A stretch of DNA of 64,000 nucleotides, taken from NCBI GenBank assembly GCA_044370175.1, contig JBILVZ010000002.1:8759-72758 (forward strand), in the 5' to 3' direction. The position numbers were made by a program, and so were the translations under genes. The notes under the pieces are model-generated. The model worked only from the letters and a program-made list of their open reading frames with translations, ran no database searches and had not been told where the DNA came from. Below, piece by piece: positions 31,557 through 38,610 of this stretch. Each line of letters starts with the position of its first letter. Position 1 is the stretch's first letter. The stretch is from Methylococcaceae bacterium. Its GTDB lineage: Bacteria > Patescibacteriota > Microgenomatia > UBA1400 > PJMF01.

Positions 31557-32303
31557 GTGCTCATGAAATCACTTCTATATTCAGTAATTACGTTGCTAGC
31601 CTCAATCAAGCACAAATTTGACCTACCTGAGAAGACTGGTGATTTTTTTGTAAAAAATAAGCCCAGCTATATCTCTCAGTTCATTGGCATATACCCACAA
31701 TCAATAACACCGCACTCCATACTGGGTGACAAGAAACACATCGCTCAATTTGGTGCAAAAGATCAAAAGGAGTTTTCATTTTGGGCGTGGAGAAATTGTG
31801 GTATTGCTTGTGTGAAAATGATTCTAGATGTTCGTCAAAAGGCAAAAAACAAATCAATTATGGATTTAACCAAAGAAGGGATCAAGTTAGGTGGATATAT
31901 TGTATATGAAGATACAAAGTTTGTTGATAAAGGCTGGTTCCATCATTCATTGGTCGCTTTGCTTAAAAAATATCAGGTGTCTGCACGAGCTCGAAAATGG
32001 CAGACGATAGAGTCAGTTGCACGAGATATTCTCAATAATAAACTTGTTATTTTATCCGTATTGGTGCCTGGACGAAGACACATTGCAGAAGATGGCTCTT
32101 TCAAACTTAAGCCAGGTGGAAAGTTGAGAGGTCATTTGTTACTTGCAACGGGCGTTCGGATGCTGAAAAAACAAGTTGTTGGCATATTTGCTCATGATCC
32201 AAGAGGTCTAAAAGAATATCAGGAAGACACGTTTATCCCTGCTTCTGTTTTCAAGAAAATCTTTACCAATCGAACGATTATTGCAGACAACGATGTGGAC
32301 TAA
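31557..32303 (+). CDS. Papain-like (peptidase C39-like) domain protein
   Basis: WAWRNCGIACVKMILD resembles the catalytic Cys context (CG.AC) of C39 / Peptidase_C39_2 domains. A downstream His (RGHLLLATG) is a candidate catalytic partner. Confidence 0.4.
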   Translation: MLMKSLLYSVITLLASIKHKFDLPEKTGDFFVKNKPSYISQFIGIYPQSITPHSILGDKKHIAQFGAKDQKEFSFWAWRNCGIACVKMILDVRQKAKNKSIMDLTKEGIKLGGYIVYEDTKFVDKGWFHHSLVALLKKYQVSARARKWQTIESVARDILNNKLVILSVLVPGRRHIAEDGSFKLKPGGKLRGHLLLATGVRMLKKQVVGIFAHDPRGLKEYQEDTFIPASVFKKIFTNRTIIADNDVD

Positions 32304-32410: not shown

Positions 32411-32592
32411 TGCCAATAATGTTTTTTGGGTGCGGGTCACTAGTTAACGAACTGCTTTGTCTATCGCTCGCGTACTCACCCTCAGGTGGAACCAAATCTA
32501 TCCTAACATACTCTCCACTTTTCATAAACTTCAGAAACTAGGTTTTACTCACAAAATCTCAAAAGACGGCAGTATTTTTATTATCGTACCTC

Positions 32593-33123
32593 TTGGGCTT
32601 ACCCAGGAGAAAGGTTCCCATGATTGACCTACTTCTTTCTCTGCTCTGGCAGCTGAGGTATAAAACAAAGCCATCTGATCTGGTTGTCTCAGAACTGCAC
32701 AACGAAGCCACGTTTTATAAAAAGTTTCTTCAAGACCTAAAGACTGCCAAAACTGAGGTGATTATTGAAAGTCCATACATTACTACCCAGCGTATGAAGC
32801 AGCTCAAGCCTGCTTTTGTGCTGTTGGTCAAGAGAAAAATCAAAGTTTACCTGCTTACCAGAGACCCAGATAGCCACGATGAATGGATGCGAACACAAGC
32901 AGAACAAGGTATCAAACAATGCCAACTGCTTGGTATACAAGTGGTCTTAAATAGTCAGTTAAGCCACCGCAAGCTTGCTATAATTGACCGCCAGATTCTC
33001 TGGGAAGGCAGTCTCAACATTCTTTCTCAGTGCCAAAGCCAGGAGATCATGCGCAGAATTGACAGCCAGAGCCAGGCAACTGCCTGTTTTTCATTCATTG
33101 GACTGAGTAAATATGTCTATTAG
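32593..33123 (+). CDS. Single-HKD phospholipase D-family protein (Nuc-like nuclease/phosphodiesterase)
   Basis: HxK(x4)D motif in SHRKLAIID, followed by GS.N (WEGSLNI). 176 aa, consistent with single-HKD Nuc-type enzymes that dimerise. Confidence 0.7.
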   Translation: MGLPRRKVPMIDLLLSLLWQLRYKTKPSDLVVSELHNEATFYKKFLQDLKTAKTEVIIESPYITTQRMKQLKPAFVLLVKRKIKVYLLTRDPDSHDEWMRTQAEQGIKQCQLLGIQVVLNSQLSHRKLAIIDRQILWEGSLNILSQCQSQEIMRRIDSQSQATACFSFIGLSKYVY

Positions 33124-33156: not shown

Positions 33157-33372
33157 ATGCAACAAGACACTCCTTACCAAATCAATGAAAAAGATATAGA
33201 CCAAGTACTGGCATTCTTAAAAGATACCGATCCTGAAAATGCAACGCCAGAGAAAGCTATTGCACTGCTTGAAGACTTACAAGCTACCATTCACAACATG
33301 AATCACGAGAACCCAGAACAGCTCCAAGCCTTATATGATAGCTTGGCAAAAAATAAGAAAAAAGCTGAGTAA
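33157..33372 (+). CDS. Hypothetical small acidic protein (71 aa)
   Basis: Intact ORF 33 nt after the PLD-like gene; no motif recognised. Confidence 0.3.
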   Translation: MQQDTPYQINEKDIDQVLAFLKDTDPENATPEKAIALLEDLQATIHNMNHENPEQLQALYDSLAKNKKKAE

Positions 33373-33376
33373 ACCT

Positions 33377-33601
33377 TTAAAAGGTCAATACGTCTGAAGA
33401 CTTGATGCCGAGTGCTCCCAAAATCTTTTTGAGGGTTAAAATTGAAGAGATTGCTTCTCCCCGTTCCACTTTTGAGTAGTAGTTACTGTTAATCCCTGCC
33501 TTTTTAGCGAGTTGTGCTTGGGTGAGGTTATTATCAAGACGAGCCTGCTTGAGCTTGGCAATAATCTGTTGATTTGTTTTCTTCTCTTGAGCAGTAAGCA
33601 T
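33377..33601 (-). CDS. XRE-family helix-turn-helix transcriptional regulator
   Basis: LTQAQLAKKAGINSNYYSKVERGEA is the canonical HTH_3/XRE motif; 74 aa. Confidence 0.75.
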   Translation of the reverse strand: MLTAQEKKTNQQIIAKLKQARLDNNLTQAQLAKKAGINSNYYSKVERGEAISSILTLKKILGALGIKSSDVLTF

Positions 33602-33657
33602 ATAGTGTAGTATATCAGGTCATAAGTATCTATTCATTCATTTGAAGAAAGGAAAGT

Positions 33658-34119
33658 ATGACCAATCCAGTTTCAAAGCCTGAAAATCTTTATGCAGTAT
33701 TATTTATAACGAAGCGGATAAATAAAGATTCTGTTGTTACTTTGAATACACAAGAAACTATGTGCAAAAATGCTGCTATAAAAAGTGGGTATCAAGTTAT
33801 TAAGATATTTAGAGAAAAAACCAATTTTTCAATTAAAATCGCTGATAGACCTATCGTCACTGAACTACTTGAATACTGTAAAACACACAGGGGCAAGGTC
33901 AATGCAGTTTTTGTAAATACTCTGGACACTATTTCTGCTGATATTTACGAATATATATCAGTAAGAAAACAATTAAGTGCACATGAAGTATCAATTTTTT
34001 CAGCAACAGAGCCTATTACTAATTATTCTGAAAAAAAGCATGTGGAGACGATACTTTTTGCATTTGCAGAACTGGATAAGGCCGTGCGAACTGGAAAACT
34101 TCCTATCTCGACTGAGTAA
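33658..34119 (+). CDS. Serine-recombinase (resolvase) catalytic-domain-like protein, apparently inactive and lacking the DNA-binding HTH
   Basis: Collinear with Hin/resolvase. FSIKIADRPIVTELLEYC aligns with ISGKIANRPGLKRAL. VFVNTLDTISAD aligns with LVVWKLDRLGRS. IFSATEPI aligns with FHSLTDSIDT. The catalytic YxRVSTxxQ is replaced by LFITKRINK (R8 and S10 not conserved), and the LDRLgR arginines are absent. 153 aa, no C-terminal HTH. Confidence 0.45.
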   Translation: MTNPVSKPENLYAVLFITKRINKDSVVTLNTQETMCKNAAIKSGYQVIKIFREKTNFSIKIADRPIVTELLEYCKTHRGKVNAVFVNTLDTISADIYEYISVRKQLSAHEVSIFSATEPITNYSEKKHVETILFAFAELDKAVRTGKLPISTE

Positions 34120-34333
34120 CTTCTTGCAAAGTTTTTCCATCGAAAATGGATCGTTCGTACTCATCCAGCCAAGTACTAATGAGATAATCTATGCAGGTAA
34201 TTTGGTGCTTTATTTCTTCATCAGTCATTCCCTCAGCACACTTGCCAAGGATCTTACGTGTTTCTTGAATCTCATTTTCATCTTCAATAAATGGATTGTC
34301 AGTATGGTTAACTACCTTTGAATGTCGAAACAT
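34103..34333 (-). CDS. Hypothetical small protein (76 aa)
   Basis: Intact acidic ORF convergent with the resolvase-like gene (16-nt overlap); no motif. Confidence 0.3.
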   Translation of the reverse strand: MFRHSKVVNHTDNPFIEDENEIQETRKILGKCAEGMTDEEIKHQITCIDYLISTWLDEYERSIFDGKTLQEVTQSR

Positions 34334-34423: not shown

Positions 34424-34966
34424 TCAGTCTTGAAGTAGCTTTGAAATATCCTCCATTAAAAATATTAACTCTGTTGCTGTAATGAAATCAGGAGTAACTG
34501 GCTTTCCTTTTAGGCTTGTGTCAATTGTTTTATCTCTCCATGTTATTGGCTGATCTTTTTTAATAGTTTCTTCTGTAAAATTAAAAGTATTTCCATGAGC
34601 AGCACCATTTCTTAAATGTTTTGCGAATTTATATATTGGCATTGAATTAATCTTATTTTGATATTTAGAAGCTTGTAAAAAATCGAATAACAATATTGCC
34701 ATCATCCTACTTACATACGTCATAAATTTTTTGTTACTAGAAGTGTATGAGCCATCGCTACTTACTCTTAAATTAACTTCTTTGTTATACTCATTTATGC
34801 TTTTAGCAATAGCTGGGTGAATCCTTAAGAATGCAGTTTGAAAATTTGGATTTCCCACAAAGCCAATACTTAGAATGAAGAAGTCAAACATTTTTTTAAT
34901 TGGATCGAAAAGTGGATGAACTTGTATTTTATTGTAATCAACACTCATATTTATATACCCCATCAA
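34424..34966 (-). CDS. HEPN-like / abortive-infection (Abi)-like protein with R-x4-H motif
   Basis: KHLRNGAAHGN contains the R-x4-6-H HEPN catalytic signature in an otherwise helical 180-aa protein. It lies in a very AT-rich stretch next to the recombinase-like and XRE genes. Confidence 0.4.
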   Translation of the reverse strand: MMGYINMSVDYNKIQVHPLFDPIKKMFDFFILSIGFVGNPNFQTAFLRIHPAIAKSINEYNKEVNLRVSSDGSYTSSNKKFMTYVSRMMAILLFDFLQASKYQNKINSMPIYKFAKHLRNGAAHGNTFNFTEETIKKDQPITWRDKTIDTSLKGKPVTPDFITATELIFLMEDISKLLQD

Positions 34967-35193: not shown

Positions 35194-38100
35194 TTAACGC
35201 TGAACAAGTGGGAGGAACAACATATTTTGTGGTGGAGGCGGCGGATCAACTTGGCATTGTGTGGTCGATCCAGGAGAGCCATTGAGTTCACTCTGCCCAG
35301 CCTCATTGAAAGCGCTGACCGCAAAATGGTATTCAGTCTGACATACCAAATTGGCGACAGTGAAACTAGTAACGCCAACCCCAACACGAGCAATCTCTTG
35401 ATATCCTGCACCCATATGTTGCCAAACGATAAAACCAGATTCGTTATCACTGGAATCGTCCCAAAGCACTTGAATGGTTGTATCCGTGTGTCCAGCGGTC
35501 CGAACATTTCTCGTCCACTCAGGAATTGTAGGTTGTTGATGACAACTACGAACCAACCCTGTTACTGAACCGCTCTTGCCATTGAGGAAATCTTTTTCAT
35601 CCTCGGTGTTTAACAACTTTGCAACCACACGGTATGTGTGCTGGCTGCCTTCTGCCCGACCTTCATCGGTGAAACTGTATGACGATTTTCCAACGATACT
35701 AGCCACTTCAGCAATCACTTGCTCATCTCGTAGCACATAGAACTTTTCCTCAAAATTTGAGTAGTCATTCCATGTAATCGTCAGTGATGAACAAGTGGGC
35801 GAATCGATAGCAGTAATCACAGGAATCGCAATTCGCACACCCACGAAAGTCAGGCCAGTCTTCACTTCACCCACTTCGTTACGAGCAGACACTTGCAGAA
35901 TGTATAGCCCAGGTTCAACTCCAGTAACTAACCAGGAAGTTTGACTTTTCCAGCCAGAGCTATATGTTTTTTCACCCAGAAGATCTGCCTTATAATCATT
36001 GGCTCGCTCTGCTGCACGCCAGGCAATATAAATCTGAGCGTCCTCATCAAAAACATTCATTCCTGTCAGCTCAGGCTCTGGAAGAGCGGGCGCAAACGCT
36101 GTACAAGCAGATGTTTGCCCCATTACCCAGCCGACCTGACCAGATTCACCGAATGCATTGGTTGAACTAACCTTGTAGAACTGCTGTGTACCACATTGGA
36201 CTTGATCGGTGAAACTGCGATTGGGCGTGTTGTGTGAGAGGAAAACAAATTCATTCCCGTTCCACTTGTACACCCTGAAACCCACGGTATTTGGTGTGGC
36301 ATGATCCCAAGCCAATGAAATGGAGTCTTCGGTCACGCCGCTGACACGTAAGTTATAGGGCGAAAGTGGAGCACAAGTCGCATTGCCAAAGATCTCGATG
36401 GATGATGTGCGGTTGTTGAGTGAGCCAATGTTTGGAATGTCGCCACTCAAACATTCAGATCGCTCACCTTGAGCTTCATTGTGTTCGTAGAGAATGCCGC
36501 TTTTGCCCACAGGGAACCTTACAGATTGCGCTGTGTCGTTGAAGTAATCTTTTGAACCCAAATTTTCCATGTTGTATACACCCGGGTCAGCACCTGCTGA
36601 CCAAGTATAACTTTGAAAATTTGAGTCATTGTGAAAAACCACACTAGTACGCAGCGTGTTAGGACAATCACCTTGATTGAAAACTTCGATGTCGGTGACT
36701 TGAGCATACAAATCAGATGGCCAACCGCTGGGCAGCGGGTCGCGTGGGGCGTTGTAGCATTCTACGGTACCTCTTTTGCTGCCCTCTCGATAAATTGACA
36801 CAGACATCCCAGAAGGCACTTCAGTCAGCCGGGTCATGGTGTCATTCCAGCCTGGCCCAAAGGCAGGCATTGAATGATATCCAGTACCGAACTGCCAGCA
36901 CCCTGTTGGGCTGCACATCACAATCAAACCTGAACCACCAGTTCCGCAGTCATTGCGGTTGAATGTCTCGATTGATTGAATGGAGTTGTGCCAACCGTGG
37001 TCCTGTAAATTGGGTACCGATTGATCCCAGCATCGCTGCTCACCACCCTTATTATCTCCGCGCCATGTTCTTGCACTCCATCCACTAGGAAGCTGCAGTG
37101 CATAAGAATTGGCATTTGGTGAATTGGAAAAGCCAAGTCCTCCAGACCATTGCACACTTCCACCATAGTTTGCCTGTGCGTATAACTTGGCATACCCCGT
37201 TGAAGTGTCGTTTGATGGATTGCAGTTGAATGACTTGGTCTTAACTGGGTTAAGGTTATGTTGGCTCCAAACAAAGTTGTTGCCTACTTTATCCCAGATT
37301 TCCAAACCAAATTCAACTGAACCATCTGGCACATTCCAAGCACACATGTTCCAGCTATAGCTGTATGGGGCAGTGCTCACTGTGGCGAGATTACGCCAAG
37401 TTCCATTCCACTTTGCTGAGTAGCGGAGTTCTTTAATACCACTATCAGTGTCTTGAACACCAGATACTGCAAGATTTGCAACACCTTGATTGATGGCGAC
37501 AGAAAAGCCTGATGCCAATGGAGGCGCGCAATCTGCGCTAGACGCAAAAGCATTGGAACTTTGGACACCACCACATTGGAATGCACCAATGAAAACATTT
37601 GCCACATGGGTTTGGTTTGCCTTGACAGTGATAGCATCTTGATTGAGGCTATCCTGTGTTAAGTCATTAAAAAACCCAGTAACACTTGTGCCATCAATGT
37701 TATATGCAGTAGCGCGCACTTTTACTTTTAACTGTGCGGGGATATTTTGAATTTCAAAATATCCGTTGATGTCTGTCTTACCACGAGCAATGACATCCTC
37801 CCGCATCAATACCTCAATACTTGCTGCGCCTGACGGTTGTCCATCTCTGTAGACTCTCCCGCCGATACTTCCAAAGCCTTCTGTATTCCATGAAGTTTCT
37901 CCCGGAACCAGAATCTCCCAGGCTGGGATAATTGTCCAGTGATGTCTGTCAGCAATACAGAAAGGCGGAATTTGATCAAAACCACAAGGCACGAAATGGT
38001 AGCCAAGATCAGCTGTAAGCTTTGCATTATCCAGATCAACTTCACCTGGTAATAATGCAATTTCTGTATAATAGAGCTTATTTGCTTCCAGCTTTTTAGC

Positions 38101-38610
38101 ATTTGCTGTCCCAAAAGTCACTTCAAATTCATTGTCAACTTCTGGGAGTACTGCAGTGTCAATGTACCATTCGGGCAAGTTAGATTGAGCCCACTGTGCG
38201 ACTGGAATTCCAGCGACGGTTGCTGTATTTACCCATACGCCCGGAGGAAACTGAGCACCTGTAGTATTGAACGAAAAGCCGTGCTCATAGGTTACTGCAC
38301 TTGAAAAAAGTGAACCATATGCAGCTTGAATTGCGGCAATCCTGTCAGCCGTCCAAATCATTTCCTGACGGATAACTCGATTGCCCTCATAGTTGACATA
38401 GGTGATAACTTTTCCAGCAGCGGGACGAAAATCACCAACGACATCAGTATATGCTTCGCTTGAATCCTCCTTCGTTTGAATTTGAACAGTTGAAATACTC
38501 GTTGGACTAACCTGCGCGACAGCAACAAAACTTTGGCTGGTGAGCATCAAAATGATGAGCACCATGAGCAATTTTTGCTTTGCTTTCACAAAGCTCGGTG
38601 AATCGTTCAC
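35194..38610 (-). CDS. Very large secreted surface protein with fibronectin type III-like repeats, a carboxypeptidase-regulatory-like domain and Trp/Gly-rich beta modules
   Basis: Signal peptide (MLIILMLTSQSFVAVAQV). GGRVYRDGQPSGAASIEVLMREDVIARGKTDINGYFEIQNIPA matches the CarboxypepD_reg fold. Several ~90-aa segments have the FN3 W...Y...A.N..G pattern. Repeated YAQANYGGS / WRGDNKGGEQRCW modules. Strong AGGAGGA ribosome-binding site upstream. Confidence 0.7.
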   Translation of the reverse strand: MNDSPSFVKAKQKLLMVLIILMLTSQSFVAVAQVSPTSISTVQIQTKEDSSEAYTDVVGDFRPAAGKVITYVNYEGNRVIRQEMIWTADRIAAIQAAYGSLFSSAVTYEHGFSFNTTGAQFPPGVWVNTATVAGIPVAQWAQSNLPEWYIDTAVLPEVDNEFEVTFGTANAKKLEANKLYYTEIALLPGEVDLDNAKLTADLGYHFVPCGFDQIPPFCIADRHHWTIIPAWEILVPGETSWNTEGFGSIGGRVYRDGQPSGAASIEVLMREDVIARGKTDINGYFEIQNIPAQLKVKVRATAYNIDGTSVTGFFNDLTQDSLNQDAITVKANQTHVANVFIGAFQCGGVQSSNAFASSADCAPPLASGFSVAINQGVANLAVSGVQDTDSGIKELRYSAKWNGTWRNLATVSTAPYSYSWNMCAWNVPDGSVEFGLEIWDKVGNNFVWSQHNLNPVKTKSFNCNPSNDTSTGYAKLYAQANYGGSVQWSGGLGFSNSPNANSYALQLPSGWSARTWRGDNKGGEQRCWDQSVPNLQDHGWHNSIQSIETFNRNDCGTGGSGLIVMCSPTGCWQFGTGYHSMPAFGPGWNDTMTRLTEVPSGMSVSIYREGSKRGTVECYNAPRDPLPSGWPSDLYAQVTDIEVFNQGDCPNTLRTSVVFHNDSNFQSYTWSAGADPGVYNMENLGSKDYFNDTAQSVRFPVGKSGILYEHNEAQGERSECLSGDIPNIGSLNNRTSSIEIFGNATCAPLSPYNLRVSGVTEDSISLAWDHATPNTVGFRVYKWNGNEFVFLSHNTPNRSFTDQVQCGTQQFYKVSSTNAFGESGQVGWVMGQTSACTAFAPALPEPELTGMNVFDEDAQIYIAWRAAERANDYKADLLGEKTYSSGWKSQTSWLVTGVEPGLYILQVSARNEVGEVKTGLTFVGVRIAIPVITAIDSPTCSSLTITWNDYSNFEEKFYVLRDEQVIAEVASIVGKSSYSFTDEGRAEGSQHTYRVVAKLLNTEDEKDFLNGKSGSVTGLVRSCHQQPTIPEWTRNVRTAGHTDTTIQVLWDDSSDNESGFIVWQHMGAGYQEIARVGVGVTSFTVANLVCQTEYHFAVSAFNEAGQSELNGSPGSTTQCQVDPPPPPQNMLFLPLVQR

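Follow-up and report, generated by a model that had tools for sequence, protein, structure and literature searches.

The open reading frame (ORF) 33658..34119 (+) of the window, i.e., the whole stretch of 64,000 nucleotides of contig JBILVZ010000002.1, is called RES here. It almost certainly encodes a catalytically inactive protein derived from a large serine recombinase (LSR), of which only the N-terminal domain is present. RES cannot recombine DNA because it has no Ser nucleophile, because Arg68, Arg71, Glu124 and Arg125 are replaced and because it has no DNA-binding domain. The explanation preferred here, at slightly less than even confidence, is that of a dead LSR-derived protein retained for a non-catalytic, interaction-based role. 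RES is real, mildly unusual, rare and dispensable; judged from its sequence, its function is putative.

33658..34119 (+): RES, 153 aa, Ser-less N-terminal catalytic domain of an LSR standing alone and ending in helix E (R144-T145-G146-K147).

Domain and predicted fold

The Resolvase family PF00239 matches RES with an E-value of 1.3e-12 (Pfam; 48.4 bits for a gathering cut-off of 23.3). The match covers residues 28-142 of RES, i.e., positions 15-126 of a profile of 145, and leaves the Ser block unmatched. The score of RES against a hidden Markov model (HMM) built from the N-terminal domains of 137 active LSRs is 112.8 bits. A sequence search of the PDB retrieves gamma-delta resolvase only (phmmer, E ~0.2).

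The AlphaFold2 model of RES alone is unusable (predicted local distance difference test, pLDDT, of 38) and the model obtained with a 19-sequence alignment (pLDDT 83.3) is used instead. The order of its elements is b1-aA-b2-aB-b3-aD-b4-aE. The top match of this model in the PDB (Foldseek) is the catalytic N-terminal domain of TP901-1 integrase (3bvp, E 3.7e-6, template-modelling score 0.70), followed by IS607 TnpA, Bxb1, PhiC31, Sin and gamma-delta. Serine recombinases account for all 34 matches at E <= 0.001 and for most of the top 50. The serine-recombinase fold, as predicted by the model, and the PF00239 membership are confirmed; an earlier note, made from the sequence of the window alone, had proposed a resolvase fold for this product.

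The C-terminus of RES lies inside helix E, about two thirds of which are present. Neither a Recombinase (PF07508) nor a zinc-ribbon (PF13408) nor a helix-turn-helix (HTH) domain follows the catalytic domain in the ORF (Pfam), and the same note was right that the protein ends before any HTH. With five full-length LSRs as queries, tblastn recovers the N-terminal domain alone in the 64-kb window, and no downstream LSR remnants of RES. Because the tblastn alignments of P0010 and P0018 seem to run beyond the stop codon, to 34167, a recent truncation was considered; the extension is weak and gapped, and the candidate was rejected. A Shine-Dalgarno-like AGGAAAG motif is located 5' of the start. No consensus promoter (including sigma-70), terminator or operator repeat was found near RES, and there is no Rfam match around it.

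Loss of catalytic residues

Residue equivalences were obtained by alignment to gamma-delta resolvase, to LSRs and to the 137 active LSR domains. The equivalent of Asp67 is retained (D90). Arg68 and Arg71 are replaced by T91 and A94, respectively, i.e., L-D90-T91-I-S-A94 stands opposite L-D-R-x-x-R, and both columns are 100% Arg in the 137 active LSRs. The two arginines of this motif are thus missing, as had been read from the sequence. Glu124 is replaced by G146 and Arg125 by K147. The equivalents of Asp36 (E53), Arg45 (R64) and Glu118 (D140) are counted as kept.

Residues 1-28 of RES contain no R-x-S. The HMM of active LSRs aligns RES from residue 27 onward only, and the Ser block therefore has no fixable register. 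In the MAFFT and BLAST alignments Arg8 corresponds to R20 and Ser10 to N22; if the strand is aligned without gaps, Arg8 corresponds to T18 and Ser10 to R20. The register proposed earlier, with F16 as Arg8 and T18 as Ser10, is unsupported because the residue opposite F16 is the conserved Tyr6. The loss of the nucleophile, claimed together with it, stands: whichever register is taken, no nucleophile is supplied.

Thirty columns are conserved at >=85% in the 137 active domains, and RES keeps 15 of them: R20 (of uncertain register), L29, Q32, C36, F51, E53, S58, K60, R64, C74, L106, S115, E118, E130 and D140. Ser10, Arg68 and Arg71 are among the conserved columns that are lost, and Arg125 among them is changed to Lys; Glu124 (changed to Gly) does not belong to the 30. 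By comparison, active LSRs deviate at a mean of 1.2 of these columns, with a maximum of 7.

Relatives of RES

An exhaustive phmmer search with RES gives 791 matches at E<=1e-3. The top matches are mainly LSRs of 480-550 aa with an intact YLRVSTEEQ block and 35-43% identity, plus shorter N-terminal fragments. The LSR clade nearest RES is referred to as the YLRVSTEEQVDNFSL clade. RES derives from the LSR clade and not from small resolvases. The product had been described as collinear with the catalytic domain of small serine recombinases; the closest relatives (480-530 aa) and the best PDB matches (TP901-1, Bxb1, PhiC31) are LSRs.

A word-index search with RES alone gives a single fragment, 98% identical, and scans of viral and metagenome contigs with the alignment of the short family give no further members. 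Only two proteins with a complete N-terminus have the same architecture, P0002 and P0004, both of 148 aa and both metagenomic (loci L006-L009). Their Ser blocks read YLRILPGDQ (P0002) and YLRTLPEDK (P0004), i.e., Leu is in place of the catalytic Ser. Their C-termini align with that of RES (...DIRSGKIKV opposite ...AVRTGKLPI), the ends being at most 2 codons apart.

RES, P0002 and P0004 have in common the following derived states: (i) the loss of Ser10 and Arg71; (ii) the x-F-[ST] version of the SAK motif; (iii) Asp changed to Glu at RES E98; (iv) Glu124 changed to Gly; (v) Arg125 changed to Lys. The identity of P0002 and P0004 to RES is just 37-40%, and both retain Tyr6 and Arg8. P0002 also retains Asp67 and Arg68 and has Lys71; P0004 is without Asp67 and Arg68 as well. 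In neighbour-joining trees the three proteins form a clade with a bootstrap of 62-71%, P0002 and P0004 being grouped at 98%.

Each of the three genes adjoins a gene of ~70 codons for an XRE regulator of one subfamily. The XRE of the window and that beside P0002 in L006 are 38% identical (E 5e-14); a second XRE of L006 does not align. RES and its XRE are divergent, whereas P0002 and P0004 are convergent with theirs in L006 and L009. There is no similarity between the leader of RES and those of P0002 and P0004. The PLD module, s76 and the HEPN-like gene described below are absent from the P0002 and P0004 loci.

Some features of these two loci can be added. In L006 (233-13079) the neighbours of P0002 on its two sides include a Type ISP restriction enzyme, a pair of ImmA and XRE genes, CBASS (SMODS plus E2-like) and a type IV secretion gene set. 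In L009 (804-2000) P0004 adjoins a Shedu (SduA_C) gene. Both loci contain a conserved Cys-rich protein of 263 aa with four CxxC pairs, divergently transcribed.

The module around RES

The genes that surround RES are the following.

32593..33123 (+): PLDc_2 nuclease-like protein (PLD), first gene of the module; PLDc_2 E 5.9e-11; 87% identical to the L022 copy.
33157..33372 (+): 71-aa protein, second gene of the module; 75% identical to the L022 copy; no Pfam family.
33377..33601 (-): XRE HTH regulator, 74 aa; HTH_3 E 1.4e-14.
33602..33657: divergent intergenic region of 56 bp, i.e., the 22-nt XRE leader (TAGTATATCA core) plus the 34-nt RES leader with AGGAAAG.
34103..34333 (-): s76, 76-aa protein, convergent with RES, with a 17-nt overlap of the 3' ends.
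34424..34966 (-): HEPN-like protein, 180 aa, upstream of s76; RNGAAH, Rx4H; weak Csm6_HEPN match (E 0.0029, below the cut-off).

The complete module is found in three independent lineages, in the order PLDc_2, 69-aa protein, XRE(-), s(+) and LSR(+), where s is the homologue of s76. The LSR of this module has 483-484 aa with Recombinase and zinc-ribbon domains in L026 (3752-5206) and L029 (3719-5170); in L016/17 an insertion sequence (IS) cuts it. The five-gene unit (~2.7 kb) is found in varied chromosomal contexts and looks like a minimal integrative element bearing a PLD nuclease.

L016 3735-5519: five-gene unit.
L026 2485-5206: five-gene unit.
L029 2445-5170: five-gene unit.

An XRE regulator next to RES had been remarked upon as unusual: the regulator is indeed there, and it is a regular part of this recurrent arrangement (PLD, small protein, XRE, small protein, LSR). 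The identities of the window genes to those of the canonical modules are 53-54% (PLD), 65-69% (71-aa protein), 57-63% (XRE) and 39-51% (s76). L010 is a contig of a metagenome-assembled genome labelled Limisphaerales, and many relatives of the module are labelled Saccharibacteria.

The 22-nt XRE leader with its TAGTATATCA core is conserved in all modules (L022, L020, L026 and L016 were compared). The XRE proteins of the window and of L022 (5251..5475) are identical over 74/74 aa, with 28 synonymous and 0 non-synonymous changes (dS ~1, dN 0; synonymous and non-synonymous divergence, respectively). Such a constraint is unusually strong for a small regulator, the neighbouring genes being just 68-87% identical to L022.

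The s76 family (65 members of 71-107 aa, no Pfam family) is characterized by the motif WLDxYERxxFDG[KQ]TL. Its members abut the start of the LSR gene, upstream and on the same strand, in L014/15, L016/17, L018/19, L026-28 and L029-31, and may assist the integrase as an accessory or directionality factor not yet characterised. Between s76 and the L010 copy dN/dS is 0.13.

L014 4740-4997: s76 family.
L016 4729-5004: s76 family.
L018 4673-4996: s76 family.
L026 3501-3749: s76 family.
L029 3501-3716: s76 family.

Probable insertion of RES in the module

Comparison of the junctions with relatives delimits an extra segment of 482 bp.

33624..34105: extra segment, i.e., the 34-nt leader and RES codons 1-149.

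The window and the L010-12 lineage have this segment; L020/21 and L022/23, the closest relatives in synteny, do not. With a slash for the junction, the relatives read GGTCAT/TCA, the stop codon of s lying directly before the 22-nt XRE leader, and the window reads GGTCAT/AAGTAT...CCTA/TCTCGA. The last four codons of RES and its stop codon are the antisense reading of the 3' end of s76.

The identity of s to the window gene is 68% for L022/23 and 76-84% for L020/21, and its sequence relationships group the window with L010, then L020, then L022. Given these relationships, one insertion in the lineage of the window and L010 is more parsimonious than two identical deletions, although recombination could blur this preference. 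No single inversion or deletion leads from the canonical order (XRE- s+ LSR+) to that of the window (XRE- RES+ s76-).

The total dS since the split from L020 is ~0.9, which is too small for the distance between RES and every known LSR; the source gene of RES was thus already divergent. On the basis of the shared derived states, this gene was probably already P0002-like. The GC content of the segment is 32.4%, within the lowest 2% of 482-nt windows, and its GC content at third codon positions (GC3) is 0.23. As the GC3 of s and LSR genes is low in all modules (0.26-0.35), the use of GC and GC3 as a proof of foreign origin was downgraded to weak evidence.

Decay of the module

Both integrases of the module have been lost in the lineage of the window. 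In L022 a second integrase (LSR_A, 546 aa) is encoded upstream of the PLD gene; in the window it is reduced to its last 24 codons.

32467..32538 (+): remnant of LSR_A, last 24 codons, matching residues 523-546 of the L022 LSR (87.5%, 21/24 identical, tblastn).

The DNA homology between L022 5229-6385 and window 33623-32466 is 83%. With its second LSR reduced in this way, the window module is without a working recombinase. Partial conservation of the stretch of the LSR_A remnant is seen 5' of the PLD gene in L016 as well.

IS3-type elements are polymorphic at this locus (L010 1-1262 and 1909-3070, L011 ~950-2216, L017 1913-2105). One of them stands in place of all the sequence 5' of window position 33858 and cuts RES; another is inserted in the HEPN-like gene (L010). 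The end of the latter encodes 'CQAPLFV' and is the same as the IS end that truncates the LSR P0152 in L016/17. In L015 (5001-6552) and L019 (77-1692) the LSR is split into a Resolvase ORF of 201 or 231 aa plus Recombinase/zinc-ribbon ORFs, which reflects either recurrent breakage or a genuine split. Among the split-LSR loci, L014/L015 are labelled Saccharibacteria, and a Replic_Relax gene with a small companion is found upstream in L014/L015 and L018.

Selection or drift

The proposal that RES is maintained as a protein while its catalysis is abandoned follows from four observations taken together: (i) the ORF is open; (ii) omega (i.e., dN/dS) is low relative to the sister lineage; (iii) its relatives P0002 and P0004 have a low dN/dS; (iv) drift rarely leaves such an ORF open in simulation. 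On this sequence evidence, selection on RES as a protein is somewhat more likely than not.

The contigs that bear RES itself are all clonal (100% identical). The sister lineage L010-12 keeps RES codons 74-153 only, downstream of an IS3-type element. In this surviving half, 7 synonymous and 2-4 non-synonymous changes separate L010-12 from the window, giving an omega of 0.08-0.16. The P0002 and P0004 genes (L006, L009), which align without indels over 148 codons, encode proteins that are 59% identical; their dN/dS is 0.28 at a dS of ~1, and for their neighbour, the 263-aa protein, the value is 0.06. In a neutral simulation with substitutions only, an ORF of 150 codons is still open in 12.5%, 4% and 0.5% of the runs at 20%, 30% and 50% amino acid divergence, respectively.

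RES is strongly accelerated. It is 39-41% identical to the N-terminal domain of the LSRs of canonical modules, against 53-54% for the neighbouring PLD, while in the comparison of intact modules this domain is the slowest gene (91-96% identity vs. 82-94% for PLD).

Several points weigh against retention for a function: (i) the within-lineage omega is based on just 9-11 substitutions; (ii) the IS3-type element removes the first 73 codons of RES in L010-12, so that RES is dispensable there, and the closest syntenic relatives are without it; (iii) relaxed constraint would explain the acceleration just as well as a change of function; (iv) the clade of the three proteins could reflect long-branch attraction; (v) the family is extremely rare, i.e., three lineages among 1.8 billion representatives; (vi) no full-length LSR of the RES clade, which would be its target, is found within the 64-kb window (tblastn).

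The choice between a decaying integrase and a repurposed protein had been left open in the earlier note. Decay describes well the setting, which is a decayed mobile module. The gene itself bears signs of purifying selection and has two relatives of the same architecture, and for these reasons repurposing is tentatively favoured over neutral decay.

Possible roles of RES

If RES is retained, it may be inferred that its role uses the fold and the helix-E interface. RES would be made as a protein, be kept by purifying selection and function through its conserved fold and the subunit interface of helix E. In the mechanism preferred here, its partner would be either a full-length integrase belonging to its own clade or the small companion protein of this integrase. 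The mixed complexes would be unable to bind two half-sites or to cleave, and the integration or excision of related elements would be damped or blocked. This decoy or inhibitor mechanism in particular, proposed by analogy and with the retention of core and helix-E positions as indirect evidence, is rather unlikely. More doubtful still is the broader proposal that the Ser-less, N-terminal-only LSR proteins (RES, P0002 and P0004) are a horizontally moving 'anti-integrase' or decoy class, carried as gene-sized cassettes beside XRE switches and, by pairing with integrases of their clade (incoming or resident) or with the small companion, immobilising or excluding related elements.

The alternative that survives best, unlikely on balance and yet a serious one, is a functionless relic, i.e., an LSR fragment that stayed behind or was captured between s76 and XRE as the module decayed, drifting and open by chance or by youth. 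This agrees with a module that is clearly decayed, its other integrase being down to 24 codons and IS elements being at the locus in sister lineages. It agrees also with the absence of RES from L020 and L022 and with its disruption by an IS in L010-12 with no visible compensation. Broken LSRs of the clade are common (P0158 in L015, P0161 in L019, P0152 cut by an IS), and RES is rare and evolves fast. A relic does not account well for 153 codons without a stop or a frameshift when one in two of the once invariant columns is altered (simulated survival of 0.5-4%). The omega relative to the sister lineage and the dN/dS between P0002 and P0004, of the same architecture, are likewise unfavourable to it. 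Moreover, the changes are concentrated at catalytic positions while those of the core and of helix E are kept.

A partnership of RES with the adjacent XRE repressor and/or s76, as a co-repressor, an anti-repressor or an oligomerisation scaffold in the switch of the module, is improbable. Its attraction lies in the fact that all three Ser-less proteins directly adjoin an XRE of one subfamily, RES being divergent from its own across 56 bp. The XRE is under the extreme constraint given above and s76 is retained beside RES with a low omega. The orientation relative to the XRE varies from divergent in the window to convergent in L006/L009, however, XRE genes are ubiquitous in mobile elements, and the identical XRE works without RES in L022.

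That RES is a component of a defence or toxin-antitoxin system, with the PLD nuclease or the HEPN-like protein, is very unlikely. A PLD-family nuclease and an HEPN-like (Rx4H) protein do flank RES, and P0002 and P0004 are beside CBASS, Type ISP restriction and Shedu genes. Nevertheless, no PADLOC model matches RES or P0002, the PLD module has no RES in L022 and has a normal LSR in other loci, and the HEPN-like gene is missing at the P0002 and P0004 loci. Nor do RES and XRE ever share a direction of transcription, which would be expected of a toxin-antitoxin pair.

An active recombinase with a non-canonical nucleophile (T18 or S25) and with DNA binding borrowed from XRE in trans can practically be dismissed: the equivalents of Asp36, Arg45 and Asp67 (E53, R64, D90) and possibly Arg8 (R20) remain, but there is no R-x-S, Arg68, Arg71, Glu124 and Arg125 are all replaced, the part of helix E responsible for DNA contact and tetramer formation is missing, no DNA-binding domain is present and P0004 has also lost Asp67 and Arg68.

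Relation to known systems

Truncated transposase inhibitors (Tn5 Inh, the KP repressor of the P element) are shortened enzymes in which the subunit interface is preserved and an essential function is missing, and which can poison the full-length one through mixed oligomers. The likeness of RES to them is a functional analogy and not homology, the fold and chemistry of these inhibitors (DDE transposases) being unrelated. No natural counterpart among serine recombinases was found in the literature searched.

Serine integrases (TP901-1 Int, Bxb1 gp35, PhiC31 Int; PF00239 plus PF07508 plus PF13408; PDB 3bvp, 9iu2, 9rah) have the same fold of the catalytic domain, and the identity of RES to the closest LSR clade is 35-45%. 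The full-length LSRs of L026 and L029 belong to the same genomic module as RES and have the same small companion gene. Unlike LSRs, RES has only 153 aa, a truncated helix E and neither recombinase domain nor zinc ribbon nor coiled coil; judged from its sequence, it can neither bind attachment (att) sites nor catalyse exchange.

Small serine recombinases (gamma-delta/Tn3 resolvase, Hin/Gin invertases) belong to the same superfamily PF00239. In contrast to small resolvases (~180-200 aa), RES is without the C-terminal HTH_7 and the catalytic Ser, and its similarity to them is distant (phmmer E 0.2). The YneB family (NF049883) is also a resolvase-domain protein without a known recombination role; RES, with 16.4 bits for a cut-off of 175, is not a member. 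RES and XRE do not have the layout of a type II toxin-antitoxin system (a co-directional two-gene operon with XRE).

No description of a natural stand-alone serine-recombinase domain without Ser was found in the literature searched, including PMC8987985. The exact RES protein is named 'DNA invertase Pin-like site-specific DNA recombinase' in JGI/IMG. As RES is without the catalytic residues and the DNA-binding domain, this public name is misleading and over-predicts its activity. If functional, RES would be a natural pseudo-enzyme from a serine integrase, regulating or blocking integrases through the helix-E interface, and would represent a potential natural off-switch of interest to serine-integrase engineering. 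Beyond RES itself, the comparison defines a compact five-gene module (PLD, XRE, two small proteins and LSR) and a conserved small companion of its LSR.

Other genes of the locus

The HEPN-like gene has a GC content of 29.8% and no matches in L020-L025; it was probably acquired separately, as low-GC DNA. The module is flanked by Peptidase_C39_2-like proteins in the window and in L022, on opposite sides, which indicates a local rearrangement; the window protein is 76% identical to one of the L022 copies.

31557..32303 (+): Peptidase_C39_2-like protein of the window.
L022 305-1033 and 4169-4834: Peptidase_C39_2-like proteins of L022.

A gene for a secreted-looking protein of 1138 aa with weak fn3 matches (35194..38610, -), of markedly higher GC content (0.465), adjoins the low-GC island.

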